This document shows, one piece after another, positions 4,073 through 52,811 of a stretch of 64,000 nt of DNA. Made by a program: the position numbers and the translations under genes. How positions within the stretch are numbered: position 1 is the first letter of the stretch; every line of letters starts with the position of its first letter. The notes below the pieces were generated by a model. It was not told the origin of the DNA and searched no databases. It saw nothing but the letters and a program-made list of their open reading frames with translations. Origin of the DNA: Escherichia coli (GTDB taxonomy: Bacteria; Pseudomonadota; Gammaproteobacteria; Enterobacterales; Enterobacteriaceae); the NCBI RefSeq assembly GCF_013122565.1, contig NZ_CP053258.1, one strand, 5' to 3'.

Positions 4073-4149
<77 letters not shown>

Positions 4150-5542: not shown

Positions 5543-5641
5543 TGCCGGATGCGGCGTGAACGCCTTATCCGGCCTACAAATCATGCAAATCCAAAATATT
5601 GCAGGAGTTATGTAGGCCTGATAAGCGTAGCGCATCAGGCA
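5543..5641. repeat. REP/BIME palindromic elements (two REP units)
   Basis: gccggatgcggcgtgaacgccttatccggcctaca and tgtaggcctgataagcgtagcgcatcaggca, typical enterobacterial REP consensus. Confidence 0.8.
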
Positions 5642-8634: not shown

Positions 8635-8840
8635 AAAAAAAAGCACCGCAATTAGGCGGTGCTACATTAATCACTATGGACAGACAGGGTAAATGTACAG
8701 GAAGTGAAAAAAGGTAGCTTTGCTACCATGGTCTGAATCGCAGACCAATTGCAAACACAACAACACAACATCACAACCGTAAGCCAAAAGTTCACCAGAA
8801 CACGCATTCCGATAAAACTTTTCGTTCCGGCTCAGGAAGT
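8635..8840 (-). ncRNA. gcvB: GcvB small regulatory RNA
   Basis: Reverse complement reads ACTTCCTGAGCCGGAACGAAAAGTTTTATCGGAATGCGTGTTCTGGTGAACTTTTGGCTTACGGTTGTGATGTTGTGTTGTTGTGTTTGC..., ending in the hairpin GCACCGCCTAATTGCGGTGC plus T8. Includes the GU-rich R1 region. Divergent from gcvA as in K-12. About 206 nt. Confidence 0.92.
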
Positions 8841-26255: not shown

Positions 26256-26801
26256 GTGGACGATTTGACCGCACAAGCCCTGAAAGATTTTACTGCACGC
26301 TACTGCGATGCGTGGCATGAAGAGCATAAAAGCTGGCCGTTAAGTGAGGAACTGTACGGCGTTCCTTCACCGTGCATTATTTCAACTACTGAAGATGCCG
26401 TATACTGGCAACCCCAGCCGTTTACCGGGGAACAAAATGTAAACGCGGTTGAACGCGCTTTTGATATTGTGATACAACCCACAATTCATACCTTTTATAC
26501 GACTCAGTTTGCCGGGGATATGCACGCGCAGTTTGGCGATATCAAACTGACATTGCTGCAAACCTGGAGTGAAGACGACTTCCGTCGGGTGCAGGAAAAT
26601 CTGATTGGTCATCTGGTGACTCAGAAAAGGCTAAAACTGCCGCCCACGCTATTTATCGCGACGCTGGAAGAAGAGTTAGAGGTCATCTCGGTGTGTAATC
26701 TCTCCGGTGAAGTGTGCAAAGAGACGCTGGGAACACGTAAACGGGCGCATTTAGCCTCAAATCTTGCGGAATTCCTTAATCAACTTAAGCCTCTTCTGTA
26801 A
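26256..26801 (+). CDS. syd: SecY-interacting protein Syd
   Basis: 181 aa. Confidence 0.93.
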
Positions 26802-26820
26802 TCCAAATACCCCATCTGGT

Positions 26821-26838
26821 TGTAAGAGATCTCTTACA
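26821..26838. promoter_or_regulatory. UvrY (BarA/UvrY) binding inverted repeat upstream of csrB
   Basis: Perfect 18-bp palindrome tgtaagagatctcttaca, about 190 bp upstream of the csrB 5' end. Confidence 0.75.
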
Positions 26839-27011
26839 GACTCTGTAGGAGATCGCCAGGAAATAAGCGAATACTTAAAAAGATAAGAATCGTTGTTTTC
26901 ATTTAAAAACAACATGTTGCTTGTTAATTCCTAACTTTCATATGAAATTTTCCTTAAGGCATTGTCTGTAAGCGCCTTGTAAGACTTCGCGAAAAAGACG
27001 ATTCTATCTTC

Positions 27012-27377
27012 GTCGACAGGGAGTCAGACAACGAAGTGAACATCAGGATGATGACACTTCTGAAGGACACACCAGGATGGTGTTTCAGGGAAAGGCTTCT
27101 GGATGAAGCGAAGAGGATGACGCAGGACGCGTTAAAGGACACCTCCAGGATGGAGAATGAGAACCGGTCAGGATGATCCGGTGGGTCAGGAAGGCCAGGG
27201 ACACTTCAGGATGAAGTATCACATCGGGGTGGTGTGAGCAGGAAGCAATAGTTCAGGATGAACGATTGGCCGCAAGGCCAGAGGAAAAGTTGTCAAGGAT
27301 GAGCAGGGAGCAACAAAAGTAGCTGGAATGCTGCGAAACGAACCGGGAGCACTGTGAATACAGTGCTCCCTTTTTTT
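27012..27377 (+). ncRNA. csrB: CsrB sRNA (CsrA-sequestering)
   Basis: About 366 nt with roughly 18 GGA-containing motifs (caggatg, aaggaca, caggaag). Ends in hairpin gggagcactgtgaatacagtgctccc plus T7. Sits between syd and yqcC as in K-12. The 5' end is approximate, +/-5 nt. Confidence 0.92.
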
Positions 27378-27422
27378 ATTCCTGCTATCCTTCGCGGCAG
27401 TTTTTCTTATTGAGGTTGCTTT

Positions 27423-27752
27423 ATGACCACTCATGACCGCGTTCGTCTCCAGTTGCAGGCGCTTGAAGCGTTACTGCGTGAACATCAGCACTGGCGAAAC
27501 GATGAACCCCAGCCGCATCAATTTAACAGTACCCAACCGTTCTTTATGGACACCATGGAACCACTGGAGTGGTTGCAGTGGGTGCTGATCCCGCGAATGC
27601 ACGATTTGTTAAATAACAACCAGCCGTTACCGGGCGCTTTTGCTGTTGCACCCTATTATGAAATGGCGCTGGCGACGGACCATCCGCAACGCGCGCTTAT
27701 TCTGGCTGAGTTGGAAAAACTGGATGCTCTTTTTGCGGATGATGCGAGCTAA
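27423..27752 (+). CDS. yqcC: DUF446 protein YqcC
   Basis: 109 aa. Synteny. Confidence 0.9.
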   Translation: MTTHDRVRLQLQALEALLREHQHWRNDEPQPHQFNSTQPFFMDTMEPLEWLQWVLIPRMHDLLNNNQPLPGAFAVAPYYEMALATDHPQRALILAELEKLDALFADDAS

Positions 27753-28534
27753 TGCTGGAAATACTCTATCAGGATGAATGGCTGGTTGCGGTAAATAAAC
27801 CCTCCGGCTGGCTGGTTCACCGCAGCTGGCTGGATCGCGACGAGAAAGTAGTGGTCATGCAAACCGTGCGTGACCAGATAGGCCAGCATGTTTTTACTGC
27901 TCATCGTCTGGACCGACCCACTTCTGGTGTGTTGTTGATGGGATTATCCAGCGAGGCCGGACGGCTGCTGGCACAACAGTTTGAACAGCACCAAATCCAG
28001 AAACGTTACCATGCGATTGTGCGCGGCTGGTTGATGGAAGAAGCGGTGCTGGATTATCCACTGGTGGAAGAACTGGACAAAATCGCTGATAAATTTGCCC
28101 GCGAAGATAAAGGCCCGCAGCCAGCAGTGACGCATTATCGCGGTCTGGCGACCGTAGAAATGCCGGTAGCGACCGGACGTTACCCGACCACGCGCTACGG
28201 CCTGGTGGAACTGGAGCCGAAAACCGGACGCAAACATCAGCTTCGCCGACATCTTGCCCATTTGCGTCATCCGATTATTGGCGATAGCAAACATGGCGAT
28301 TTACGCCAGAATCGCAGCGGTGCTGAGCATTTTGGTCTTCAGCGGTTAATGCTGCATGCCAGTCAGTTGTCATTGACGCATCCTTTTACTGGCGAGCCGC
28401 TGACTATTCACGCGGGCCTGGACGACACCTGGATGCAGGCGTTATCACAATTTGGCTGGCGCGGTCTGCTTCCTGAAAATGAAAGGGTTGAGTTCAGTGC
28501 GCCATCGGGTCAGGATGGAGAGATAAGTTCCTAA
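27752..28534 (+). CDS. truC: tRNA pseudouridine(65) synthase TruC
   Basis: 260 aa, RluA family with the catalytic Asp motif HRLD. Confidence 0.93.
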
Positions 28535-28551
28535 TCCAGGGAGAAAACGGT

Positions 28552-29001
28552 ATGGCGGAAATTGGTATTTTTGTCGGCACCATGTACGGAAATTCGCTGT
28601 TAGTGGCGGAAGAAGCAGAAGCAATTCTGACCGCACAGGGCCACAAAGCAACGGTATTTGAAGATCCTGAATTAAGCGACTGGCTGCCCTATCAGGATAA
28701 GTATGTTCTGGTGGTTACGTCCACGACCGGGCAGGGCGACCTTCCTGATAGCATTGTGCCGCTCTTTCAGGGAATCAAAGATAGTCTGGGCTTCCAGCCG
28801 AATCTGCGTTATGGCGTGATTGCGCTCGGCGACAGCAGTTATGTAAATTTCTGCAATGGCGGCAAACAGTTCGATGCCTTGTTGCAGGAACAGAGCGCTC
28901 AGCGGGTTGGCGAAATGCTGTTGATTGACGCCAGTGAGAACCCGGAACCGGAAACGGAATCAAATCCGTGGGTCGAACAGTGGGGCACGCTGTTGTCCTG
29001 A
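28552..29001 (+). CDS. yqcA: Flavodoxin-like protein YqcA
   Basis: 149 aa. Confidence 0.9.
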
Positions 29002-29435
29002 TATGTTCAGCGAGCGGTAAATGCCGTTTTAGCGGTGCTGAATCGAATCTTTTCAGGCAAATGCCAGTAAAAACTGCTTCATAGCGCGGATTTTTACTGG
29101 CGTTTGCCTGGAGTCAAGCGATCCATTTCATACTCTTCTTTATTTCTTCGTTTTAACCCTTCCTTTCTTGTTCTTGTTTTCATTTCCGTGAAGTGGATTC
29201 CACCGTCCAGGGCTAATGCCAAAATCGGGCCTCATTGAACGCATTAATGTTGTGTTGTTGCACGGTGAGCCGCTATGGCGCGCTTTTTATACTGCTATTG
29301 CCAGATATAAACACGCGCCGTATTCGGCGAACGACCTATAAAAACGGCAAAAAACACCCTACGTCACCTCTGATTTCCTGGCGATGTCGCAGTCCAGAGT
29401 GAGCGTGGCTAACGCGAATTTTCAGGAGTGCAACA

Positions 29436-30788
29436 ATGAGTTCTTTAAGTCAGGCTGCGAGCAGTGTGGAAAAACGCACGAATGCTCGTTACTGGATAGT
29501 GGTGATGTTGTTTATCGTCACATCCTTCAACTACGGCGACCGCGCTACGCTTTCTATTGCCGGTTCGGAAATGGCCAAAGATATCGGCCTTGATCCCGTG
29601 GGAATGGGCTATGTGTTCTCTGCCTTCTCATGGGCTTATGTTATAGGGCAGATCCCTGGTGGTTGGTTGCTGGATCGTTTTGGTTCAAAACGCGTCTACT
29701 TCTGGTCGATCTTTATCTGGTCGATGTTTACCTTGCTGCAAGGCTTCGTCGATATCTTTAGTGGATTCGGCATTATCGTTGCCCTGTTTACTCTGCGCTT
29801 CCTGGTCGGGCTTGCTGAAGCGCCATCTTTCCCCGGCAACAGTCGCATTGTTGCGGCCTGGTTTCCGGCGCAGGAAAGGGGAACGGCGGTGTCGATTTTT
29901 AACTCCGCTCAATACTTCGCAACGGTGATCTTCGCGCCGATTATGGGCTGGCTGACGCATGAAGTGGGCTGGTCACACGTCTTCTTCTTTATGGGCGGTC
30001 TGGGCATTGTCATCAGCTTTATCTGGTTGAAAGTCATCCACGAGCCAAATCAACATCCGGGGGTAAATCAGAAAGAGCTGGAGTATATCGCCGCGGGTGG
30101 CGCGCTGATCAATATGGATCAGCAAAACACCAAAGTTAAAGTGCCATTCAGCGTGAAGTGGGGACAGATCAAACAACTGCTCGGGTCACGGATGATGATC
30201 GGCGTTTATATTGGTCAGTACTGTATCAACGCCCTGACTTACTTTTTCATTACCTGGTTCCCGGTTTATCTGGTGCAGGCGCGTGGGATGTCGATTCTGA
30301 AAGCGGGCTTTGTGGCTTCCGTTCCGGCGGTTTGCGGTTTTATCGGCGGTGTGCTGGGTGGGATTATTTCCGACTGGCTGATGCGCCGCACGGGATCGCT
30401 GAACATTGCGCGTAAAACACCGATCGTAATGGGCATGTTGCTGTCGATGGTGATGGTGTTCTGCAACTACGTCAACGTTGAGTGGATGATCATCGGCTTT
30501 ATGGCGCTGGCCTTCTTCGGTAAGGGCATCGGGGCGCTGGGTTGGGCAGTAATGGCAGATACCGCGCCAAAAGAGATCAGCGGTCTTTCAGGTGGCCTGT
30601 TCAACATGTTCGGTAACATTTCTGGCATCGTCACGCCAATCGCAATTGGTTATATCGTTGGCACGACTGGCTCGTTTAATGGGGCGCTGATTTATGTTGG
30701 TGTTCATGCCTTAATCGCGGTACTGAGCTACCTGGTACTGGTGGGCGATATCAAGCGTATCGAGCTGAAACCTGTCGCGGGGCAATAA
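29436..30788 (+). CDS. gudP: Glucarate/galactarate MFS transporter GudP
   Basis: 450 aa. Confidence 0.93.
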
Positions 30789-30789
30789 G

Positions 30790-32130
30790 ATGACGACACA
30801 ATCCAGTCCTGTTATTACTGATATGAAAGTCATTCCGGTCGCCGGACATGACAGCATGTTGCTCAATATTGGTGGTGCGCATAACGCATACTTCACCCGC
30901 AATATCGTGGTACTCACCGATAATGCCGGGCATACCAGCATTGGTGAAGCGCCGGGCGGAGAGGTGATTTATCAAACACTGGTCGAAGCTATTCCGATGG
31001 TGCTGGGCCAGGAAGTTGCGCGCCTGAATAAAGTGGTTCAGCAGGTGCATAAAGGTAATCAGGCCGCCGATTTTGATACCTTCGGTAAAGGTGCCTGGAC
31101 CTTTGAATTGCGCGTTAATACCGTGGCGGCGCTGGAAGCCGCCTTGCTTGACCTGCTAGGTAAGGCGCTGAATGTTCCGGTCTGCGAACTGTTAGGGCCA
31201 GGCAAGCAACGCGATGCTATTACCGTCCTCGGTTATCTGTTTTATATCGGTGATCGGACCAAAACCGATCTTCCTTATCTGGAAAATACGCCGGGCAACC
31301 ATGAGTGGTATCAGTTGCGCCATCAGAAAGCGATGAACAGCGAAGCCGTTGTGCGTCTGGCGGAAGCCTCACAGGATCGCTACGGCTTTAAAGATTTCAA
31401 ACTTAAGGGCGGCGTGTTACCTGGCGAGCAAGAAATCGACACTGTTCGTGCATTGAAGAAACGCTTCCCGGATGCGCGGATTACCGTTGATCCCAACGGT
31501 GCATGGCTGCTTGATGAAGCCATTTCTCTGTGCAAAGGGCTGAATGATGTTCTTACCTATGCCGAAGATCCATGCGGCGCAGAACAGGGCTTCTCCGGAC
31601 GTGAAGTGATGGCGGAGTTTCGGCGGGCGACCGGCTTGCCCGTCGCGACTAATATGATCGCCACCAACTGGCGCGAAATGGGTCATGCGGTGATGCTCAA
31701 TGCGGTAGATATTCCACTTGCCGATCCGCACTTCTGGACGCTTTCCGGTGCAGTCCGAGTGGCGCAGCTTTGCGACGACTGGGGGCTGACCTGGGGCTGC
31801 CATTCCAACAACCATTTCGATATCTCTCTGGCGATGTTTACCCATGTGGGCGCGGCGGCACCGGGTAATCCTACCGCTATCGATACCCACTGGATTTGGC
31901 AGGAGGGCGATTGTCGCCTGACCCAAAATCCGCTGGAGATTAAAAACGGAAAAATTGCCGTTCCTGATGCGCCCGGTCTGGGCGTGGAACTGGACTGGGA
32001 ACAGGTACAAAAGGCACATGAGGCCTATAAACGTCTGCCTGGCGGTGCGCGTAACGACGCAGGCCCGATGCAGTACCTGATCCCCGGCTGGACCTTTGAC
32101 CGTAAACGTCCCGTTTTCGGCCGTCATTGA
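30790..32130 (+). CDS. gudX: Glucarate dehydratase-related protein GudX (enolase superfamily)
   Basis: 446 aa, paralogous to the following gene. Confidence 0.93.
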
Positions 32131-32150
32131 TTCTGAAAAAGGACATAAAT

Positions 32151-33491
32151 ATGAGTTCTCAATTTACGACGCCTGTTGTTACTGAAATGCAGGTCATCCC
32201 GGTGGCGGGCCATGACAGTATGCTGATGAATCTGAGTGGTGCACACGCACCGTTCTTCACGCGTAATATTGTGATTATCAAAGATAATTCTGGTCACACT
32301 GGCGTAGGGGAAATTCCCGGCGGCGAGAAAATCCGTAAAACGCTGGAAGATGCGATTCCGCTGGTAGTGGGTAAAACGCTGGGTGAATACAAAAACGTTC
32401 TGACGCTGGTGCGTAATACTTTTGCCGATCGTGATGCCGGCGGGCGCGGTTTGCAGACATTTGATTTGCGTACCACTATTCATGTAGTTACCGGGATAGA
32501 AGCGGCAATGCTGGATCTGCTGGGGCAGCATCTGGGGGTTAACGTGGCATCCCTGCTGGGCGATGGTCAACAGCGTAGCGAAGTCGAAATGCTCGGTTAT
32601 CTGTTCTTCGTCGGTAATCGCAAAGCCACACCACTGCCGTATCAAAGCCAGCCGGATGACTCATGCGACTGGTATCGCCTGCGTCATGAAGAAGCGATGA
32701 CGCCGGATGCGGTAGTGCGCCTGGCGGAAGCGGCATATGAAAAATATGGCTTCAACGATTTCAAACTGAAGGGCGGTGTACTGGCCGGGGAAGAAGAAGC
32801 CGAGTCTATTGTGGCACTGGCGAAACGCTTCCCACAGGCGCGTATTACGCTCGATCCTAACGGTGCCTGGTCGCTGAACGAAGCGATTAAAATCGGTAAA
32901 TACCTGAAAGGTTCGCTGGCTTATGCAGAAGATCCGTGTGGTGCGGAGCAAGGTTTCTCCGGGCGTGAAGTGATGGCAGAGTTCCGTCGCGCAACTGGCC
33001 TGCCAACCGCAACCAATATGATCGCCACCGACTGGCGGCAGATGGGCCATACGCTCTCGTTACAATCCGTTGATATCCCGCTGGCGGATCCGCATTTCTG
33101 GACGATGCAAGGTTCGGTACGTGTGGCGCAAATGTGCCATGAATTTGGCCTGACCTGGGGTTCACACTCTAACAACCACTTCGATATTTCCCTGGCGATG
33201 TTTACCCATGTTGCCGCAGCTGCACCGGGTAAAATTACCGCTATTGATACACACTGGATCTGGCAGGAAGGCAATCAGCGCCTGACTAAAGAACCGTTTG
33301 AGATCAAAGGCGGGCTGGTACAGGTGCCAGAAAAACCGGGGCTGGGTGTAGAAATCGATATGGATCAAGTGATGAAAGCCCATGAGCTGTATCAGAAACA
33401 CGGGCTTGGCGCGCGTGACGATGCGATGGGAATGCAGTACCTGATTCCTGGCTGGACGTTCGATAACAAGCGTCCGTGCATGGTGCGTTAA
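32151..33491 (+). CDS. gudD: D-glucarate dehydratase GudD
   Basis: 446 aa from the internal ATG ([17 protein letters not shown]) with SD aagga. The track ORF starts 8 codons upstream. Confidence 0.93.
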
Positions 33492-33612
33492 GACAGAATA
33501 CCAAAACCGGCTCTATCTGGAGCCGGTTTGAGACTGATGCTAAACGCAAAATAGCCTGTTGTGCTATGTATCAGGTCTACATCATTTTTTAATTCATTGA
33601 ATTTAATTGGTT

Positions 33613-33650
33613 TTGTAGGCCGGATAAGGCGTTAACGCCGCATCCGGCAT
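33613..33650. repeat. REP element between gudD and barA
   Basis: ttgtaggccggataaggcgttaacgccgcatccggcat. Confidence 0.7.
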
Positions 33651-33722
33651 AAACACAGGCACTTTGTCACCAATCTGAAACCAGCGTCATAAAAAGCCGA
33701 TTGCTACTCGACAAGACGTCCG

Positions 33723-36479
33723 TTACCCGAGAATTTTGCTGGCTTCGCGCGCGACATTATCCATCTCGTCCAACAGTTCCAGCAGCTCCGGCTCCAAATC
33801 TTCTTCTTTAGTACCGCTACGTAGCTGTTGTTCGATCAGTTGGCAGAGATTCTTCATACGCGGCACACCGCTATAGCCGCAACTGCCATGCAGTTTATGA
33901 ATCAAATCAACCAGGCCTTCCGGGTTTTCTCCAACCAGCTGTTCCTCAACTTTGTTGCGAACTTCAGGCAGGAAATCGAGTAACATTTGCAGCATATCGC
34001 GCGCTAAATCGGTTTTTCCTGCTGCCTGGCGTAGTGCCAGTTGCCAGTCGAGGGTCGCATTCGGGTTCACCACAATTTCGTTGACTTCGGGCGTCACGAC
34101 GCGAGAGGAAATACCGCTGCCAGGCTTGTAGCGCAACAACAAATTATGCAATCGCTCTTCTTCAATCGGTTTCGCCAGATAATCGCTCATCCCTGCGCCA
34201 AGCAGCTTCTCTTTTTGCCCGGCCATTGCATGCGCCGTTACCGCGATAACCGGCGTTTGTTGCTGATGGGGGAGCTGGTGGATGAGCTCGCAGGCCCGAA
34301 TGCCATCCATGTCCGGCATTTGAATATCCATTAAGATCAAATCGAACGGCATCTGTTTCGCCCGTTCAACCGCCTGATGCCCGCTATCGCAAAGTTCCAC
34401 ATGTTGCACCATATCTTCCAGCAATGCGCCGATAAGTTTCAGGTTAGCGGGGTTGTCATCAACCGCCATGACTGTCATTGCCAGCTTACTTTCATCGGTT
34501 ACAGGCAAAAGCGTGTTTTGTTTGTGATGACAAAATTCCGTCAGGGCAGGCAACAGGCGCGTAGGTGTTAATGGTTTCAGCAGACACGCGCCGATACCAT
34601 CTTGCTTAAGTTTTTCAGCATTGACTTGTGCATGGCAAGGAAGTGCCAGCATCAGGAAATCGGTCATCGATACCGCTTTCGCTAATCGCTCATGTTGCAT
34701 TGTTAGCGGCTCGCGGAAGGTCACCGCGATGCCTAACAACATCATGTCGTAATGCGCGGGAGGCAGCGCGGAGAACGTTGGGCTATAAACCACTTCCAGC
34801 GGCGTTTCACTTAAAATATCCAGCGTGCATTGCGCTGCTGCGGAGTTTGGTTCGACATAGGCCAGGCGCTTACCTGCGAGGCACTGGGTGGATGGCCCTT
34901 CGATAATAATGTTCGGGTTCAGATCGAGATTAATGTGGAACCAGAAAGTTGAACCGCGATTTGGCTGGCTATGGAACGAAATATCGCCGCCCATTTCATT
35001 AACCAGTTTTTGTGTAATCACCAGCCCCAGCCCGGTGCCACCATGACGGCGGGAAATACTGGCATCAGCCTGTCGGAAGGCCTGGAATAAGCGCGATTGA
35101 TCGCGTTCAGGAATACCAATGCCGGTATCCCGAATCTGCACTTCAATCTGCACTTTGGTATTACTCAGCGCACGTTTTTCTACCAGAATATCAATGTTGC
35201 CATTCTCGGTGAATTTAATTGCATTCCCCACCAGGTTAGTGATGATTTGCTGTAATCGCAGTGGGTCGCCGATCACGTTATCAGGCACGTCGCTTTTAAT
35301 ATTGAGCGTCAGTTCCAACCCTTTATCGTGAGAAGAATGTGCCAGCAGAGTAACGACTTCATCCAGCGTGCTGCGTAGTGGGAATGGAATACTTTCCAGA
35401 ATCAGCTTACCTGCTTCCAGTTTCGAGAAGTCGAGAACATCATTAATAATTGCCAGCAAATTATTTGCTGAACGTTCAATCGTATTCAGGTGATCGCGCT
35501 GCGTTGGTGTTAATTCTGTTTTCAGTGTCAGGCGGGTAAAGCCAATAACACCATTCAGTGGTGTACGCAGCTCGTGTGACATATTTGCCAGAAACTCGGA
35601 TTTAATACGCGCCGCTTCCTGGGCGCGCTTTTTCGCCAGATCCAACTCAACGTTCTGAATTTCCATCTGCTCCAGCGTTTCACGCAGATCGGACGTCGCC
35701 TGGTCGATATTGTGCTGCATCTCTTCGTGATAAGCAGCCAGCGACATTGCCATCGAGTTGATACCGTTTTTCAGCATATCCAGCTCGCCGAGCATAAATC
35801 CTTCCACCCGGCTGTCGAGTTGCCCGCGACGGATGCGGTCGACGGTATTCACCATGTTGCGAATCGGACCGGTTACATCGCGCATTAAGCGCCAGCCAAA
35901 AATAAGCGCAATACCGATACAAAACAGCATCATCACGCTGGAAATAAAGATCTCTTTATATTGCTGCAAGCGAACCGATTTAAGATCCAGCTCAAGCGCA
36001 ATATATCCCAACATATTTTGACTATTTTTGGCATCGCTACTGGGCGATTCGTCGGGGGAATAACTCTCAGAAATAATCGGCGTGCGGAGGATCATAATAT
36101 CGCCGTCACGAGTGACAGTGAGCTGGCGAGGAAACGGCACGTTGCTGCCGAGCTGCATTGATGAGGGATCAAGATGAAAATTGGAGGTGACAAAGAGTCG
36201 GTTATTTTCATCATAAACCGAAATCGCGCGAACAATATCAGAATGGCGACGATGCAGTACGCTTATTAACTGACCGATAGATTCGCGATTTTGCAGGCTC
36301 ATGCCATATTCAGTAGAAACTGCAAGCGGCTCAATAATGCTGGCACCGGCATCTTCCAGTTGACGCTGCAAGTCGTTATAGCGATGCACGACGAAAAAGA
36401 TACTCAGCAATAAACCAATAAGGACGGTCGGTGCCAGGATCAGAATCATCATGCGTGCGCGCAGGCTGTAGTTGGTCAT
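33723..36479 (-). CDS. barA: Hybrid sensor histidine kinase BarA
   Basis: 918 aa with HAMP, HisKA/HATPase, receiver and HPt domains. Confidence 0.95.
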
Positions 36480-36535
36480 GGAGTTCCGTTATGGGACAAT
36501 TAAGGTCACACTGTTAAATTGAGAAAGTCTCGCCA

Positions 36536-37837
36536 ATGGCGCAATTCTACTCTGCAAAACGACGCACGACGACGCGTCAGATCATAACCGTTTCAGTCAA
36601 CGACCTCGACTCTTTTGGTCAGGGCGTGGCGCGACATAACGGCAAAACGCTATTTATCCCCGGATTATTACCGCAGGAAAACGCGGAAGTTACTGTTACT
36701 GAAGATAAAAAACAGTATGCCCGCGCTAAAGTCGTACGCCGGTTAAGCGATAACCCGGAACGCGAAACGCCACGCTGTCCTCATTTTGGCGTATGCGGCG
36801 GCTGTCAGCAACAACACGCCAGCGTGGATTTACAGCAGCGAAGCAAAAGTGCGGCACTCGCCCGATTAATGAAACACGAAGTCTCTGAAGTGATCGCCGA
36901 TGTTCCCTGGGGCTATCGCCGTCGCGCGCGTTTAAGTCTGAATTACTTACCGAAAACACAGCAACTTCAGATGGGGTTTCGCAAAGCGGGCTCCAGTGAC
37001 ATTGTCGACGTTAAACAATGCCCCATTTTAGTGCCCCAACTTGAAGCATTGCTGCCCAAAGTCAGGGCATGCCTGGGCAGCTTACAAGCTATGCGCCATC
37101 TTGGTCATGTTGAACTGGTACAGGCAACCAGCGGCACGCTGATGATTTTGCGCCATACCGCACCGCTAAGTTCGGCAGATCGCGAAAAACTGGAACGCTT
37201 TTCGCATTCTGAAGGCCTGGATCTGTATCTCGCCCCCGATAGTGAGATACTCGAAACCGTCTCTGGTGAGATGCCCTGGTATGACTCAAACGGGTTGCGC
37301 TTAACTTTTAGCCCGCGCGATTTTATTCAGGTCAATGCGGGTGTGAACCAAAAAATGGTAGCGCGTGCGTTGGAATGGCTGGATGTGCAACCTGAAGATC
37401 GCGTACTGGATCTGTTCTGCGGTATGGGCAACTTTACACTGCCATTGGCGACACAAGCTGCCAGTGTGGTCGGTGTAGAAGGTGTTCCGGCGCTGGTGGA
37501 AAAAGGCCAGCAGAATGCGCGTCTTAATGGCTTACAGAATGTGACGTTTTATCACGAAAATCTTGAAGAAGATGTCACAAAGCAGCCGTGGGCGAAAAAC
37601 GGCTTCGATAAAGTGTTGCTGGACCCTGCGCGAGCAGGTGCCGCAGGTGTTATGCAGCAAATTATAAAACTGGAACCTATTCGTATAGTTTATGTATCCT
37701 GTAACCCTGCAACGCTGGCTCGGGATAGCGAAGCGTTATTAAAAGCAGGATATACCATTGCGCGACTGGCGATGCTGGATATGTTCCCACACACGGGACA
37801 TCTGGAATCGATGGTACTTTTCTCGCGCGTTAAATAG
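36536..37837 (+). CDS. rlmD: 23S rRNA m5U1939 methyltransferase RlmD (RumA)
   Basis: 433 aa, TRAM domain and Fe-S Cys cluster. Confidence 0.93.
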
Positions 37838-37884
37838 TTGCGATTTGCCGATTTCGGCAGGTCTGGTCCCTAAAGGAGAGGACG

Positions 37885-40119
37885 ATGGTTGCGGTAAGAA
37901 GTGCACATATCAATAAGGCTGGTGAATTTGATCCGGAAAAATGGATCGCAAGTCTGGGTATTACCAGCCAGAAGTCGTGTGAGTGCTTAGCCGAAACCTG
38001 GGCGTATTGTCTGCAACAGACGCAGGGGCATCCGGATGCCAGTCTGTTATTGTGGCGTGGTGTTGAGATGGTGGAGATCCTCTCGACATTAAGTATGGAC
38101 ATTGACACGCTGCGGGCGGCGCTGCTTTTCCCTCTGGCGGATGCCAACGTAGTCAGCGAAGATGTGCTGCGTGAGAGCGTCGGTAAGTCGGTCGTTAACC
38201 TTATTCACGGCGTGCGTGATATGGCGGCGATCCGCCAGCTGAAAGCGACGCACACTGATTCTGTTTCCTCCGAACAGGTCGATAACGTTCGCCGGATGTT
38301 ATTGGCGATGGTCGATGATTTTCGCTGCGTGGTCATCAAACTGGCGGAGCGTATTGCTCATCTGCGTGAAGTAAAAGATGCGCCGGAAGATGAACGCGTA
38401 CTGGCGGCAAAAGAGTGCACCAATATCTACGCGCCGTTGGCAAACCGTCTTGGGATTGGGCAACTGAAATGGGAGCTGGAAGATTACTGCTTCCGTTATC
38501 TCCACCCGACCGAATACAAACGCATCGCAAAACTGTTGCATGAACGCCGTCTCGACCGCGAACACTATATCGAAGAGTTTGTCGGTCATCTGCGCGCTGA
38601 GATGAAAGCTGAAGGCGTTAAAGCTGAAGTGTATGGTCGTCCGAAACACATCTACAGCATCTGGCGCAAAATGCAGAAAAAGAACCTCGCCTTCGATGAG
38701 CTGTTTGATGTGCGTGCGGTACGTATTGTCGCCGAGCGTTTACAGGATTGTTATGCCGCACTGGGGATAGTGCACACTCACTATCGCCACCTGCCGGATG
38801 AGTTTGACGATTATGTCGCTAACCCGAAACCAAACGGTTATCAGTCTATTCATACCGTGGTTCTGGGGCCGGGTGGAAAAACCGTTGAGATCCAAATCCG
38901 CACCAAACAGATGCATGAAGATGCAGAGTTGGGTGTTGCTGCGCACTGGAAATATAAAGAGGGCGCGGCAGCTGGCGGCGCACGTTCGGGACATGAAGAC
39001 CGGATTGCCTGGCTGCGTAAACTGATTGCGTGGCAGGAAGAGATGGCTGATTCCGGCGAAATGCTCGACGAAGTACGTAGTCAGGTCTTTGACGACCGGG
39101 TGTACGTCTTTACGCCGAAAGGTGATGTCGTTGATTTGCCTGCGGGATCAACGCCGCTGGACTTCGCTTACCACATCCACAGTGATGTCGGACACCGCTG
39201 CATCGGGGCAAAAATTGGCGGGCGCATTGTGCCGTTCACCTACCAGCTGCAGATGGGCGACCAGATTGAAATTATCACCCAGAAACAGCCGAACCCCAGC
39301 CGTGACTGGTTAAACCCAAACCTCGGTTACGTCACAACCAGCCGTGGGCGTTCGAAAATTCACGCCTGGTTCCGTAAACAGGACCGTGACAAAAACATTC
39401 TGGCTGGGCGGCAAATCCTTGACGACGAGCTGGAACATCTGGGGATCAGCCTGAAAGAAGCAGAAAAACATCTGCTGCCGCGTTACAACTTCAATGATGT
39501 CGACGAGTTGCTGGCGGCGATTGGTGGAGGGGATATCCGTCTCAATCAGATGGTAAACTTCCTGCAATCGCAATTTAATAAGCCGAGTGCCGAAGAGCAG
39601 GACGCCGCCGCGCTGAAGCAACTTCAGCAAAAAAGCTACACGCCGCAAAACCGCAGTAAAGATAACGGTCGTGTGGTGGTTGAAGGTGTCGGTAACCTGA
39701 TGCACCACATCGCGCGCTGCTGCCAGCCGATTCCTGGAGATGAGATTGTCGGCTTCATTACCCAGGGACGCGGTATTTCAGTACACCGCGCCGATTGCGA
39801 ACAACTGGCGGAACTGCGCTCCCATGCGCCAGAACGCATTGTTGACGCGGTATGGGGCGAGAGCTACTCCGCCGGATATTCGCTGGTGGTCCGCGTGGTG
39901 GCTAATGATCGTAGTGGGTTGTTACGTGATATCACGACCATTCTCGCCAATGAGAAAGTGAACGTGCTTGGCGTTGCCAGCCGTAGCGACACCAAACAGC
40001 AACTGGCGACCATCGACATGACCATTGAGATTTACAACCTGCAAGTGCTGGGTCGCGTGCTGGGTAAACTCAACCAGGTGCCGGATGTTATCGACGCGCG
40101 TCGGTTGCACGGGAGTTAG
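37885..40119 (+). CDS. relA: GTP pyrophosphokinase RelA ((p)ppGpp synthetase I)
   Basis: 744 aa. Confidence 0.95.
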   Translation: MVAVRSAHINKAGEFDPEKWIASLGITSQKSCECLAETWAYCLQQTQGHPDASLLLWRGVEMVEILSTLSMDIDTLRAALLFPLADANVVSEDVLRESVGKSVVNLIHGVRDMAAIRQLKATHTDSVSSEQVDNVRRMLLAMVDDFRCVVIKLAERIAHLREVKDAPEDERVLAAKECTNIYAPLANRLGIGQLKWELEDYCFRYLHPTEYKRIAKLLHERRLDREHYIEEFVGHLRAEMKAEGVKAEVYGRPKHIYSIWRKMQKKNLAFDELFDVRAVRIVAERLQDCYAALGIVHTHYRHLPDEFDDYVANPKPNGYQSIHTVVLGPGGKTVEIQIRTKQMHEDAELGVAAHWKYKEGAAAGGARSGHEDRIAWLRKLIAWQEEMADSGEMLDEVRSQVFDDRVYVFTPKGDVVDLPAGSTPLDFAYHIHSDVGHRCIGAKIGGRIVPFTYQLQMGDQIEIITQKQPNPSRDWLNPNLGYVTTSRGRSKIHAWFRKQDRDKNILAGRQILDDELEHLGISLKEAEKHLLPRYNFNDVDELLAAIGGGDIRLNQMVNFLQSQFNKPSAEEQDAAALKQLQQKSYTPQNRSKDNGRVVVEGVGNLMHHIARCCQPIPGDEIVGFITQGRGISVHRADCEQLAELRSHAPERIVDAVWGESYSAGYSLVVRVVANDRSGLLRDITTILANEKVNVLGVASRSDTKQQLATIDMTIEIYNLQVLGRVLGKLNQVPDVIDARRLHGS

Positions 40120-40128
40120 TCTTACATA

Positions 40129-40165
40129 GCTGGATATGGCGTCAGCCGTATCCAGCGATATCTTT
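40129..40165 (+). terminator. Hairpin downstream of relA
   Basis: gctggata-N12-tatccagc followed by a T-rich stretch. Weak terminator or processing structure. Confidence 0.4.
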
Positions 40166-40214
40166 TACTCGAAGGTATTACACCTGACAGATCCGCAATT
40201 TTCAGGACAATTCA

Positions 40215-41006
40215 ATGAATCAAATCGACCGTTTGCTCACCATCATGCAGCGTCTTCGCGACCCGGAAAACGGCTGCCCGTGGGATAAAGAGCAGACATT
40301 TGCAACCATTGCGCCTTACACCCTTGAAGAAACCTACGAAGTGCTGGACGCCATCGCCCGCGAAGACTTTGACGATCTGCGCGGTGAACTCGGCGATCTG
40401 CTGTTCCAGGTGGTGTTTTACGCACAAATGGCCCAGGAAGAAGGGCGCTTTGATTTTAATGATATTTGCGCCGCGATTAGCGATAAATTAGAGCGTCGCC
40501 ATCCGCATGTTTTTGCTGACAGTTCTGCCGGAAACAGCCGCGAAGTTCTCGCCCGTTGGGAGCAAATCAAAACCGAAGAGCGCGCGCAGAAAGCGCAGCA
40601 TTCGGCGCTGGACGATATTCCTCGTAGTTTACCAGCCTTAATGCGTGCGCAAAAAATCCAGAAACGTTGCGCCAACGTTGGCTTCGACTGGACGACGCTT
40701 GGCCCGGTGGTTGATAAAGTCTACGAAGAGATCGATGAGGTGATGTGCGAGGCACGGCAGGCTGTTATCGACCAGGCTAAACTGGAGGAGGAAATGGGGG
40801 ACCTGCTGTTTGCCACGGTCAATCTGGCTCGTCATTTAGGGACAAAAGCGGAAATCGCATTGCAAAAAGCGAACGAAAAATTCGAGCGTCGTTTTCGCGA
40901 AGTGGAGCGTATTGTTGCCGCGCGTGGACTGGAAATGACAGGTGTTGACCTCGAAACAATGGAAGAAGTCTGGCAACAGGTAAAACGGCAGGAAATTGAT
41001 CTCTAA
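40215..41006 (+). CDS. mazG: Nucleoside triphosphate pyrophosphohydrolase MazG
   Basis: 263 aa. Lies 95 bp after relA, with no mazEF between. Confidence 0.93.
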   Translation: MNQIDRLLTIMQRLRDPENGCPWDKEQTFATIAPYTLEETYEVLDAIAREDFDDLRGELGDLLFQVVFYAQMAQEEGRFDFNDICAAISDKLERRHPHVFADSSAGNSREVLARWEQIKTEERAQKAQHSALDDIPRSLPALMRAQKIQKRCANVGFDWTTLGPVVDKVYEEIDEVMCEARQAVIDQAKLEEEMGDLLFATVNLARHLGTKAEIALQKANEKFERRFREVERIVAARGLEMTGVDLETMEEVWQQVKRQEIDL

Positions 41007-41218
41007 GGGAATTACGTGGTCAAGCGCGATTTGTGTCATTTTTTAAATGACAAGCGCTTGATTTGCGTCAAAAACATTTACCCCAAAGGGGCTATTTTCT
41101 CACTCCTGATTTCAATAGTGCGCTGGCGAAGAGGAGGGATAATGAAAGTTTGTGGCACAGGTCATGTTCGGGTATACTGCTTTCCCGTCCTGGTTATTCC
41201 ATCGTCTTTTCAACCTAA

Positions 41219-42871
<1,653 letters not shown>

Positions 42872-42943
42872 GTAAAAAAGTTAGAACGGCAACGCGTACC
42901 CTGGGTACGCGTTGTTTGTCTGGAGTTTCAGTTTAACTAGTGA

Positions 42944-44257
<1,314 letters not shown>

Positions 44258-44281
44258 GTCTGACTTTATCTGATTTAAAAA

Positions 44282-44307
44282 TGCCAGCCTCCGGGCTGGC
44301 ATTTTTT
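44282..44307. terminator. Bidirectional rho-independent terminator between eno and ygcG
   Basis: Hairpin tgccagcc-tccg-ggctggca flanked by an A-run on one side and a T-run on the other. Confidence 0.7.
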
Positions 44308-44316
44308 ATGGTTGAG

Positions 44317-45189
44317 TTACCAGCGGCCAGATGCGCCGCCCCCGCCAGAAGAACCGCCCCCGCCGCTAAACCCGCCGCTATCTGAGCCTCCAGCGGAACC
44401 GCTGTTGTCTGAATGATAACTTCTACCAGATGCTCTTTTCTGAAGTACACATAAACAGGTAAAGACCATAAATATGGTGAAAGTAAAAAAGAAGGAAAAT
44501 ACAGCAATGGAAAAAGTTTTATCGGAGAACAGGAATAAATCTAAAAGATAGATTGCTGAAATACAGACTCCACTTTTACATGCGCGACAAAAATTACTGC
44601 CTTGATGAAAAAACCAGAAAGGGAAGAACATCACTGCAAATACCCAAAAAATAGCAAAGTAATAATGATCACTGGAAGACGCTGATTCACTTTCTGAAGG
44701 ATTAGCCGGATATTGGTGTTGTGAAGTGAGTTGGTTATTCAAAGCGTTTATAGCTAGCTCTAATCCCTGAGCTAATTTTTGTTGTTTAAATGCGGGTATC
44801 ATGTTGCTACGGATGATATCTCCAGCCAGAGCATCGGTTACCTTTTCTTCCAGCCCATAACCTACCTGGATGCGGACAGTACGATCCGACCAGGCAACAA
44901 TGATCAGTATCCCATCATTACGTTTGGCATCTCCTAAACGCCAATTGTCAAAAACTCTTGTAGCATATTGTTCAATTGTCTCGTCTTTGGTTGTGGGAAC
45001 AATTAATACAGCAATTTGCACTTGGGTATTATTGAAAATAGATTCTAACTTGTACGTCAGTTCTTTCTTTTCTTGTGAGTTTAAGCTACTGGTAAGATCC
45101 GTAACTTGTTGCTGTAATGATGGGACAATAGTTGGTTGGGCTGCAACAAAGGAACACACGAATGTGAACATTAGTATGAAATAGCGCAT
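44317..45189 (-). CDS. ygcG: TPM-domain (DUF477) membrane protein YgcG with Gly/Ser-rich C-terminal tail
   Basis: About 290 aa from the internal start [19 protein letters not shown] (signal peptide). Low-complexity C-terminus [19 protein letters not shown]. The 384-aa track ORF carries an implausible 5' extension. Confidence 0.85.
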
Positions 45190-45481
45190 TATAAATTTCT
45201 CATTAAATCTGGATAAATAAATTGACGGCGGCATCGGTAATTTGAGATTCGTTATCATTAAAAAAGAATACAGAAAAATAAATATAAATTTGGTGAATGT
45301 TTTTGACATGATTAAATCCATTTTCTTTATTTTCTTCTGACATAATACGTTACTCCCTTTAATTCTTAACGATATGTTTCGCATTTTTCTTGAAACCTGC
45401 CTGTAACAGAATGTTAATAAGACATGATTGTTGTGGCAGGATCTGCAATAATTAACAATTATCCACTTCACAGAGAATGCT

Positions 45482-46153
45482 ATGCAGTACCCGATTAACG
45501 AGATGTTCCAGACCCTGCAAGGTGAGGGTTACTTTACCGGCGTCCCCGCCATTTTTATTCGTTTACAGGGATGCCCGGTTGGCTGTGCCTGGTGCGACAC
45601 CAAACACACCTGGGAAAAGCTTGAGGATCGGGAAGTCTCCCTTTTCAGCATTCTGGCGAAGACCAAAGAGAGTGATAAGTGGGGGGCGGCGAGCAGTGAA
45701 GACTTGCTGGCTGTCATTGGTCGCCAGGGATATACCGCGCGGCATGTGGTGATTACGGGGGGTGAGCCTTGCATTCATGATTTGCTGCCACTGACTGACC
45801 TGCTCGAAAAGAACGGTTTTAGCTGCCAGATCGAAACCAGTGGTACTCATGAAGTACGCTGTACACCGAATACCTGGGTTACCGTATCGCCAAAGCTGAA
45901 CATGCGCGGCGGCTATGAAGTGTTGTCACAGGCACTGGAGCGAGCCAACGAAATCAAGCATCCAGTGGGACGCGTACGTGATATTGAAGCACTGGATGAA
46001 CTTTTGGCGACGCTGACCGATGATAAACCGCGAGTCATTGCACTGCAGCCGATTAGCCAAAAGGATGATGCCACACGTTTGTGCATTGAAACCTGCATTG
46101 CGCGTAATTGGCGTTTGTCGATGCAAACCCATAAATATTTAAATATTGCCTGA
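45482..46153 (+). CDS. queE: 7-carboxy-7-deazaguanine synthase QueE (radical SAM)
   Basis: 223 aa, radical-SAM Cys motif [10 protein letters not shown]. Confidence 0.95.
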
Positions 46154-52394: not shown

Positions 52395-52658
52395 ATATTG
52401 CCGGATAAATTAAACGCCTCTGTCAGAAATGATGGGGGCGTTTTTATTTTGCGAGCAGCATTCCTGATTTTAAACGTGAACGCCGCTGGAAGAATTATCA
52501 GGTATAGAATGGCGTCGGGTGCTTGAGGCTGTCTGGCGTTAAGCATTCGCGAGGTTCCAGATGGACAAAAGCCCCAGGCGATATTTCTATCAACCTGAGG
52601 CTTACGTTCGAACCCAAACAATTCGAATGTTAGTCTCTTCTTTGCAGGGAGGCAAGAC

Positions 52659-52811
52659 ATGCTGACAAAATATGCCCTTGTGGCAATCATCGTACTGTGT
52701 TGTACAGTACTGGGATTCACGCTGATGGTAGGCGACTCGTTGTGTGAGTTGAGTATCAGAGAACGTGGTATGGAGTTTAAGGCAGTTCTCGCTTACGAAT
52801 CGAAGAAGTAG
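52659..52811 (+). CDS. Hok/Gef-family type I toxin (50 aa; below ORF-track cutoff)
   Basis: Translates to [50 protein letters not shown]. One TM helix and a conserved C-terminal SLCE...AYES.K block as in plasmid R1 Hok (from memory). SD agggagg 7 nt upstream. An overlapping upstream 34-codon ORF (52561..52665) ends 7 nt into hok, like a mok reading frame. Confidence 0.8.

Follow-up and report, generated by a model that had tools for sequence, protein, structure and literature searches.

The BarA-UvrY-CsrB-CsrA circuit is textbook knowledge. The sensor kinase BarA phosphorylates UvrY, the response regulator that binds the palindrome found upstream of csrB. CsrB itself is a decoy RNA, which sequesters its target, the csrA product CsrA. 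GacA/UvrY boxes are also a feature of the Csr/Rsm sRNAs of other genera, such as RsmY/Z of Pseudomonas, CsrB1/2 of Shewanella and CsrB-D of Vibrio.

The consensus of the UvrY/GacA box is TGTAAGN6CTTACA (PMC3171408, PMC4682653). The UvrY/SirA site footprinted at csrB of Escherichia coli and Salmonella, TGTGAGAGATCTCTTACA, is centred at -183/-182, and in E. coli K-12 UvrY-P protects it in DNase footprinting, while ChIP-exo detected it by crosslinking in vivo (PMC4682653). At K-12 csrB, UvrY crosslinking also covers a zone from -56 to +25, and activation of the gene requires IHF (PMC4682653).

The DNA analysed here is a 64-kb stretch of an E. coli chromosome (the window). Its csrB gene, the upstream box and barA were located and found to be intact (Table 1). 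The region is almost certainly the canonical csrB locus of Escherichia, with barA as a syntenic neighbour, and its identification agrees with the preliminary description, which had presented the locus as known rather than novel biology. Its value is mainly that of a positive control: an ncRNA gene, its distal activator site and the matching kinase were all recognized correctly in raw sequence. One item is new: in a rare natural allele, the UvrY box of csrB is a perfect consensus site.

Table 1. Features of the csrB-barA region (coordinates refer to the 64-kb window)
Feature	Position	Strand	Basis and details
syd (SecY-interacting protein)	26256..26801	+	NCBIfam NF003439, 286 bits (cut-off 153)
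Putative UvrY(-P) binding site, csrB upstream activating sequence	26821..26838	.	Perfect 18-bp inverted repeat TGTAAGAGATCTCTTACA
Extra half-site-like element TGTAGGAGA	26844..26852	+	Read from the sequence; 5 bp downstream of the inverted repeat
IHF-like site(s) in the box-to-promoter interval	26907..26922	.	Consensus scan: AAACAACATGTTG (+), AAGCAACATGTTG (-)
csrB promoter-proximal region	26956..27036	+	K-12 -56..+25 UvrY crosslinking zone, transferred by alignment
csrB sRNA gene	27012..27380	+	369 nt; K-12 csrB (b4408) annotation mapped by alignment
csrB intrinsic terminator	27345..27377	+	Terminator scan; 11-bp G+C-rich stem, 4-nt loop, T7 run
yqcC, truC, yqcA, gudP, gudX, gudD	27423..33491	+	ORFs; names from the collinear E. 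coli C/K-12 annotation, tblastn
barA, tripartite hybrid sensor histidine kinase	33723..36479	-	918 aa; NCBIfam NF008318

The csrB gene and its RNA

A scan with the Rfam model RF00018 (CsrB/RsmB) matched positions 27021-27380 (+) along the entire model (1-356 of 356) with 384 bits (E 1e-111), compared with a gathering score of 71 bits, which confirms the presence of csrB in the window. The preliminary description had delimited the gene as 27012..27377. The start was retained, whereas the end proved to be 3 nt short and falls inside the T-run of the terminator, whose stem corresponds to the final helix of model RF00018. The flanking genes (syd and yqcC), the length of the RNA and the terminator are those of K-12 csrB (Zere et al. 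2015, PMC4682653). As had been noted earlier, csrB is missing from the track of open reading frames: no long ORF crosses the gene, which is overlapped only by two short antisense ORFs (62 and 71 aa).

The csrB sequence contains 22 GGA motifs, compared with 12.3 +/- 2.8 in shuffled sequence, and the pattern CAGGA[UCA]G occurs nine times. In the MFE fold, GGA is present in nine of the 14 hairpin loops. Three SNPs (27063, 27178 and 27351) distinguish the gene from K-12 csrB, and two of them turn G-U into Watson-Crick pairs. On the strength of its ~99% identity to K-12 CsrB, the encoded RNA would be expected to sequester CsrA.

barA and the surrounding gene order

BarA belongs, together with GacS, VarS and LetS, to the tripartite kinases. 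The intact, full-length ORF found in the window encodes a protein that scores 1624 bits against the equivalog NF008318 (cut-off 890; residues 1-917) and is identical to K-12 BarA at 918 of 918 residues; it has H302, D718 and H861 of the phosphorelay, and no differences were detected. The gene is convergent with gudD and divergent from rlmD.

barA begins 6342 bp past the 3′ end of csrB, in agreement with the 6 kb given earlier. K-12, E. coli C and the window share the order syd-csrB-yqcC-truC-yqcA-gudPXD-barA-rlmD-relA, and the csrB region of the window is ~99% identical to that of both strains. The 24-kb block holding csrB and barA is unbroken in 5414 of the 5426 complete E. coli genomes. In Enterobacter and Entomohabitans, too, yqcA is followed by the gud operon, consistent with a like layout in other Enterobacteriaceae. 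Such conservation could be taken to mean that the two genes form a selected functional module, held together for co-regulation or co-transfer. This is very unlikely, given that six genes unrelated to Csr (yqcC, truC, yqcA and gudPXD) separate csrB from barA, which lies on the opposite strand, and that uvrY and csrA are located elsewhere. Moreover, no BarA or Gud homolog follows syd-csrB-yqcC-truC-yqcA within the sequence available downstream of yqcA in Dickeya (5.7 kb), Photobacterium (locus L096; 4.8 kb) and Glaciecola (locus L057; 8.1 kb). With about six Csr-system genes in 4.6 Mb, the chance that some pair lies less than 10 kb apart is, by a rough estimate, several percent. The closeness of csrB and barA (6.3 kb) is inherited enterobacterial gene order, and the two genes constitute neither an operon nor a module.

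The remaining members of the circuit were sought in the window by tblastn. K-12 CsrA gave no match there, and the sole match to K-12 UvrY was the BarA receiver domain (29% identity, E 8e-7). In K-12, uvrY lies ~0.93 Mb from csrB. The "complete regulatory arc" attributed to this region therefore does not hold, and since uvrY and csrA are outside the window, the circuit is completed only by assuming an E. coli-like remainder of the genome.

The UvrY box upstream of csrB

The inverted repeat TGTAAGAGATCTCTTACA is the longest perfect palindrome of the 64 kb and its sole match in the window even when three mismatches are allowed (0.01 expected by chance). Its centre lies 182.5 bp and its first base 191 bp upstream of the csrB start at 27012, so the distance of about 190 bp reported earlier was correct. 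It fits the consensus TGTAAGN6CTTACA with 0 mismatches, as an exact GacA/UvrY box of the kind that accompanies Csr/Rsm sRNAs, and no further boxes with up to two mismatches to this consensus were found in the window.

The preliminary description had equated the palindrome with the known UvrY/SirA site. As regards position this is right, since the box lies at the orthologous place, has the same 18-bp length, centre (~-183) and downstream half-site-like element as the K-12 upstream activating sequence (PMC4682653), and is flanked by at least 70 bp on each side that are identical to K-12. As regards sequence the two are not identical: 17 of 18 bases are shared with TGTGAGAGATCTCTTACA, the form carried by both K-12 and E. 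coli C, and the single difference, G4>A, shifts the box towards the consensus. For this reason the assignment as a UvrY site stands despite the literal mismatch. The validated site, with G at position 4, is symmetric at 17 of 18 positions, whereas the window form, with A, is fully symmetric; G4>A is thus what makes the box both a perfect palindrome and an exact consensus match. The perfect 18-mer was not found in the literature searched. Judged from the alignment, the box is clearly the ortholog of the footprinted UvrY/SirA site, and published work on that site suggests that it is likewise bound by UvrY-P.

The palindrome follows syd directly (the gene ends at 26801, its stop codon 20 bp before the box), and a perfect 18-nt palindrome is able to fold in RNA, so it might be regarded mainly as a hairpin that ends or stabilizes the syd transcript. 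This is extremely improbable, as the stem is A+U-rich and followed by GACTCTGTAGG in place of a T-run, the orthologous K-12 site was footprinted with UvrY-P and also crosslinked in living cells (PMC4682653), and the same 18-mer precedes CsrB-family genes that have no detectable Syd homolog next to them, e.g. at three Vibrio loci (L005, L008 and L033). A role as the syd terminator was rejected outright: the T-run is missing and the terminator scan made no call. The syd gene lies outside the Csr circuit.

Elements between the box and csrB, and the likely course of activation

The TGTAGGAGA element has been described at equal spacing for csrB of E. coli and Salmonella (PMC4682653). Further downstream, AAACAACATGTTG and AAGCAACATGTTG each deviate by one mismatch from the IHF consensus WATCAANNNNTTR, whereas the aligned position of K-12 holds a perfect match, AATCAAAATGTTG. 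Four SNPs separate the window from K-12 in the IHF-site region, all of them common to the window and E. coli C.

The promoter-proximal region is identical among the window, K-12 and E. coli C in the alignment, and it probably holds a weak, activator-dependent promoter. A simple scan for sigma-70 promoters revealed none with the consensus at csrB, and the start of the gene (27012) was therefore transferred from the K-12 annotation. For an activator-dependent promoter the lack of this consensus is expected, and it is not counted as positive evidence.

Binding, phosphotransfer and sequestration at this locus can be sketched by analogy with E. coli K-12 and Salmonella, on which the pertinent literature is based. 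BarA would autophosphorylate and relay the phosphoryl group via H302, D718 and H861 to UvrY, encoded elsewhere in the genome. A UvrY-P dimer would then occupy the 18-bp inverted repeat, whose centre lies ~183 bp upstream of csrB. IHF, bound in the interval that separates the box from the weak promoter, would help the distal activator to reach RNA polymerase, so that csrB is transcribed. The resulting 369-nt CsrB, whose 22 GGA motifs often lie in hairpin loops, would sequester CsrA dimers and relieve CsrA control of target mRNAs.

Occurrence of the box in other species

Among GTDB species-representative genomes, at least 120 stretches contain the identical 18-mer, and the named taxa are all Gammaproteobacteria. 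Of 39 loci that were scanned, 23 have a correctly oriented CsrB-family gene with the 18-mer 175-340 bp upstream of it. Including the central AGATCT, the 18-mer precedes CsrB-family genes in Enterobacter, Entomohabitans, Pantoea, Pectobacterium, Brenneria, Dickeya, Samsonia, Vibrio and Photobacterium. The spacing between the box and the start of the Rfam match is exactly 191.5 bp in the window, Enterobacter, Entomohabitans and Vibrio salinus, and the genes flanking csrB (syd and yqcC) are conserved as far as Vibrionaceae. The exact 18-mer marks out Csr/Rsm sRNA genes throughout Gammaproteobacteria, even at loci without an Rfam match. A survey of this kind could aid the search for Csr/Rsm sRNAs in Halomonas and Alcanivorax and may help their annotation.

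A rare form of the box within E. coli

Within E. coli the consensus form of the box is exceptional. The two forms differ at one base of the 36-mer CCATCTGGTTGT[A/G]AGAGATCTCTTACAGACTCTGTA. Of 5426 complete genomes, 5414 have the G form, and not one has the A form (0/5426); the zero count is not an artefact of low-complexity masking, since the G-form 36-mer, serving as a control, finds its 5414 genomes. The G form was also present in all 20 other E. coli contigs sampled. The Syd and YqcC alleles of the window are very common, and the contigs sharing them all carry the G box.

The A form recurs in the draft assembly GCA_052983875.1 (locus L144). Over 26536-27177 this assembly and the window are the same; across the whole 21.3-kb locus they show 138 differences, all from 27178 onwards, which indicates that the record is distinct from the window sequence. 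An A at 26824 that merely reflects a sequencing or assembly error, with TGTGAG as the true sequence, would fit the 5414 to 0 count among the complete genomes and the G in all 20 sampled contigs, but is hardly credible when an independent assembly differing at 138 positions also has A. We conclude that the A allele is real but rare.

Most likely, G4>A would leave UvrY-P binding intact or modestly strengthen it. A bolder, rather doubtful possibility is that in this rare lineage the change measurably raises UvrY-P affinity and csrB transcription and so lowers free CsrA. If this were true, the Csr set-point would be shifted for glycogen, biofilm, motility and virulence traits, and G4>A would represent a naturally occurring allele that tunes a global regulator in cis. 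The A allele offers an isogenic test of how far UvrY-P binding is limited by the one asymmetric base of the standard E. coli/Salmonella site.

The closest complete E. coli genome is just 99.0-99.2% identical to the window over 24 kb. The RlmD allele of the window is specific, being shared with two contigs, namely GCA_052983875.1 and Logan SRR11451224_136, the latter 100% identical to window positions 33620-45794.

UvrY box upstream of csrB

In Escherichia coli and Salmonella, UvrY/SirA binding was mapped by ChIP-exo and DNase I footprinting to TGTGAGAGATCTCTTACA, a "nearly perfect" inverted repeat of 18 nt whose centre lies at -183/-182 (E. coli) or -182/-181 (Salmonella) relative to csrB (Zere et al. 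2015, PMC4682653). A partially conserved TGTAGGAGA lies 5 bp downstream of the repeat, and an IHF site separates the UvrY box from the csrB promoter (PMC4682653).

The palindrome that the preliminary description reported upstream of csrB is present in the window, its centre 182.5 bp before the csrB start. It is the longest perfect palindrome of the 64-kb window and occurs only once, even when 3 mismatches are allowed (0.01 occurrences expected by chance). Its position is the same as in K-12, with at least 70 bp identical on each side, and TGTAGGAGA is found at 26844-26852. The sole difference from the validated site is an A at position 4 of the box (26824), where K-12, E. coli C and Salmonella have G. 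With this substitution the repeat becomes fully symmetric and agrees at every defined base with the family consensus TGTAAGN6CTTACA, described as the "UvrY consensus binding sequence" (PMC4682653) and as the UvrY/GacA box (PMC3171408). Equating the palindrome with the known site was therefore correct as to position and orthology, but it departs from TGTGAGAGATCTCTTACA by one base, toward the consensus.

Features of the window
Feature	Position	Strand	Size	Remarks
tRNA	4076-4149	-		Rfam, at gathering threshold
ES036/CssrF	5577-5619	+		Rfam 46.5 bits, at gathering threshold
GcvB	8635-8840	-		Rfam 199 bits, at gathering threshold
Predicted UvrY box	26821-26838		18 bp	Perfect inverted repeat TGTAAGAGATCTCTTACA
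IHF-like sequence	26907-26922			One mismatch to WATCAANNNNTTR
csrB (b4408 ortholog)	27012-27380	+	369 nt	K-12 MG1655 annotation transferred by alignment
barA	33723-36479	-	918 aa	NCBIfam BarA equivalog, 1624 bits (cut-off 890)
sok (RF01794)	52517-52674	+		Rfam 113 bits
Hok-like ORF	52659-52811	+	50 aa	Intact; directly downstream of cysH-like ORF

Four clustered SNPs relative to K-12 (26909, 26913, 26920 and 26931), which also occur in E. coli C and certain other strains, lie in the IHF-site region that separates the box from the csrB promoter. K-12 matches WATCAANNNNTTR perfectly at the place of the IHF-like sequence; the SNPs change its perfect IHF consensus AATCAAAATGTTG to AAACAACATGTTG, and a 10-bp palindrome, CAACATGTTG, arises from them. 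In E. coli the window-type and K-12-type haplotypes are both common.

Distribution of the two box forms

No complete RefSeq E. coli genome (0/5426) matched a 36-mer carrying the A form, while a G-form control 36-mer matched 5414. Megablast requires a 28-nt exact word, and every such word of a 36-nt query spans the entire box, so the exact G form is present in all 5414 genomes. Further E. coli contigs, retrieved through exact YqcC and Syd alleles, carried G in 20 of 20 cases. The A form was found in one independent assembly, GCA_052983875.1, and the allele is thus real and rare. Between 26536 and 27177 the locus of this assembly does not differ from the window; its 138 differing positions across the 21.3 kb compared (window 26536-47837) all fall from 27178 onwards, with many in the gud region, a pattern suggestive of mosaic recombination around the csrB-barA interval.

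The exact perfect 18-mer is a common sequence beyond Escherichia: at least 120 stretches of GTDB species-representative genomes contain it. Taxa among the matches listed include Vibrio, Photobacterium, Halomonas/Vreelandella, Alcanivorax, Salinicola, Shewanella, Dickeya, Pectobacterium, Brenneria, Samsonia, Pantoea, Enterobacter, Entomohabitans and several other gammaproteobacterial taxa. Hence it is the window that has the widespread consensus form, while the site usual in E. coli and Salmonella is the slightly degenerate one. Rfam scans of 39 loci placed a correctly oriented CsrB-family gene 175-340 bp downstream of the box in 23; the box and the start of the Rfam model are separated by exactly 191.5 bp in the window, in two Enterobacter loci, in Entomohabitans and in Vibrio salinus.

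Near the perfect box, no Rfam match at the gathering threshold was obtained in six Halomonas/Vreelandella and Alcanivorax loci (L004, L013, L014, L048, L049, L054), or in loci of Shewanella (L066), Vibrio ruber (L018, L019) and V. furnissii (L068). In these ten loci one flank of the box is GGA-rich (8-22 GGA per 400 nt; background mean 4.5), which suggests putative unannotated Csr/Rsm-type sRNA genes. Vreelandella titanicae has four boxes of this type on four contigs, two of which (L048, L049) were checked.

Between syd and yqcC, Escherichia has one CsrB-family gene, whereas Photobacterium species have three in tandem (L038 2618-4512, L061 6252-8050, L083 396-2190, L096 2813-4612). Only one gene of each trio is preceded by the perfect box, namely the one nearest syd in L038 and L083 and the third, nearest yqcC, in L061 and L096.

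csrB gene and RNA

The identity proposed for csrB was borne out by a full-model match to RF00018 (Rfam CsrB/RsmB) at 27021-27380 (+), with 384 bits (gathering score 71). Of the proposed limits, the start was correct, but the end (27377) was 3 nt short, within the terminator T-run. CsrB RNA contains 22 GGA motifs (12.3 ± 2.8 in shuffles), nine of which match CAGGA[UCA]G; in its MFE fold, GGA occurs in 9 of 14 hairpin loops. At the end of the gene, an 11-bp G+C-rich stem precedes T7.

Three substitutions distinguish the gene from that of K-12. A GGA motif is retained despite 27063 C>A; 27178 T>C and 27351 G>A convert G-U to Watson-Crick pairs, in a loop-GGA hairpin and the terminator stem, respectively. 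Such pair-preserving changes are as would be expected for a structured RNA under constraint. A simple scan revealed no consensus sigma-70 promoter for csrB, which fits an activator-dependent promoter.

barA and the regulatory circuit

The kinase gene barA, described as 6 kb away, was indeed identified 6342 bp from the csrB 3′ end. Its product is identical to K-12 BarA (918/918), with H302, D718 and H861 present. The gene order, queF/syd - box - csrB - yqcC - truC - yqcA - gudP - gudX - gudD - barA(-) - rlmD - relA, is the same in E. coli C and K-12. Six unrelated genes separate csrB from barA, which lies on the opposite strand, and the 24-kb syntenic block to which both belong is kept in 5414 of 5426 E. 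coli genomes. In Enterobacter and Entomohabitans, too, yqcA is followed by the gud operon. Past the conserved syd-csrB-yqcC-truC-yqcA block, however, the Dickeya, Photobacterium and Glaciecola loci show no homolog of BarA or Gud within 4.8-8.1 kb. On the loci compared, we read the proximity of barA and csrB as probably incidental enterobacterial gene order.

The "complete regulatory arc" claimed for this region could not be upheld. In tblastn searches of the window, K-12 UvrY matched only the BarA receiver domain (29% identity) and K-12 CsrA gave no match, and thus both the central DNA-binding component and the target are absent; in K-12, uvrY lies ~0.93 Mb from csrB. According to the literature, BarA would autophosphorylate and relay phosphate via H302 > D718 > H861 to UvrY, UvrY-P would bind the box, IHF would bend the DNA between box and promoter, and the GGA motifs of transcribed CsrB would titrate CsrA. 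In K-12, deletion of barA lowers in vivo UvrY binding ~35-fold and loss of IHF lowers CsrB ~10-fold (PMC4682653). This mechanism should be preserved with the A allele, which may bind UvrY-P modestly more strongly.

The original observation is thus confirmed and its interpretation supported with two corrections, the box base and the incomplete arc. The system was, as the preliminary description acknowledged, already known; what is new is confined to a rare SNP that restores the consensus of the UvrY box, a modest testable lead.

Other features of the window

The window is E. coli-like, but no complete RefSeq E. coli genome (of 5426) matches it exactly; the best match shows 99.0-99.2% identity over 24 kb. 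Logan contig SRR11451224_136 is 100% identical to 33620-45794. No mazEF is present between relA (end 40119) and mazG (start 40216), where K-12 carries it, and the gap (40120-40215) is 96 bp compared with 732 bp in K-12. In the 24-kb comparison many E. coli genomes likewise differ in length by 636 bp, whereas the aligned span of some, e.g. OkiPb01695, is within 1 bp of the query length. A hok/sok-type type I toxin-antitoxin locus was distinguished at 52517-52811 (+).
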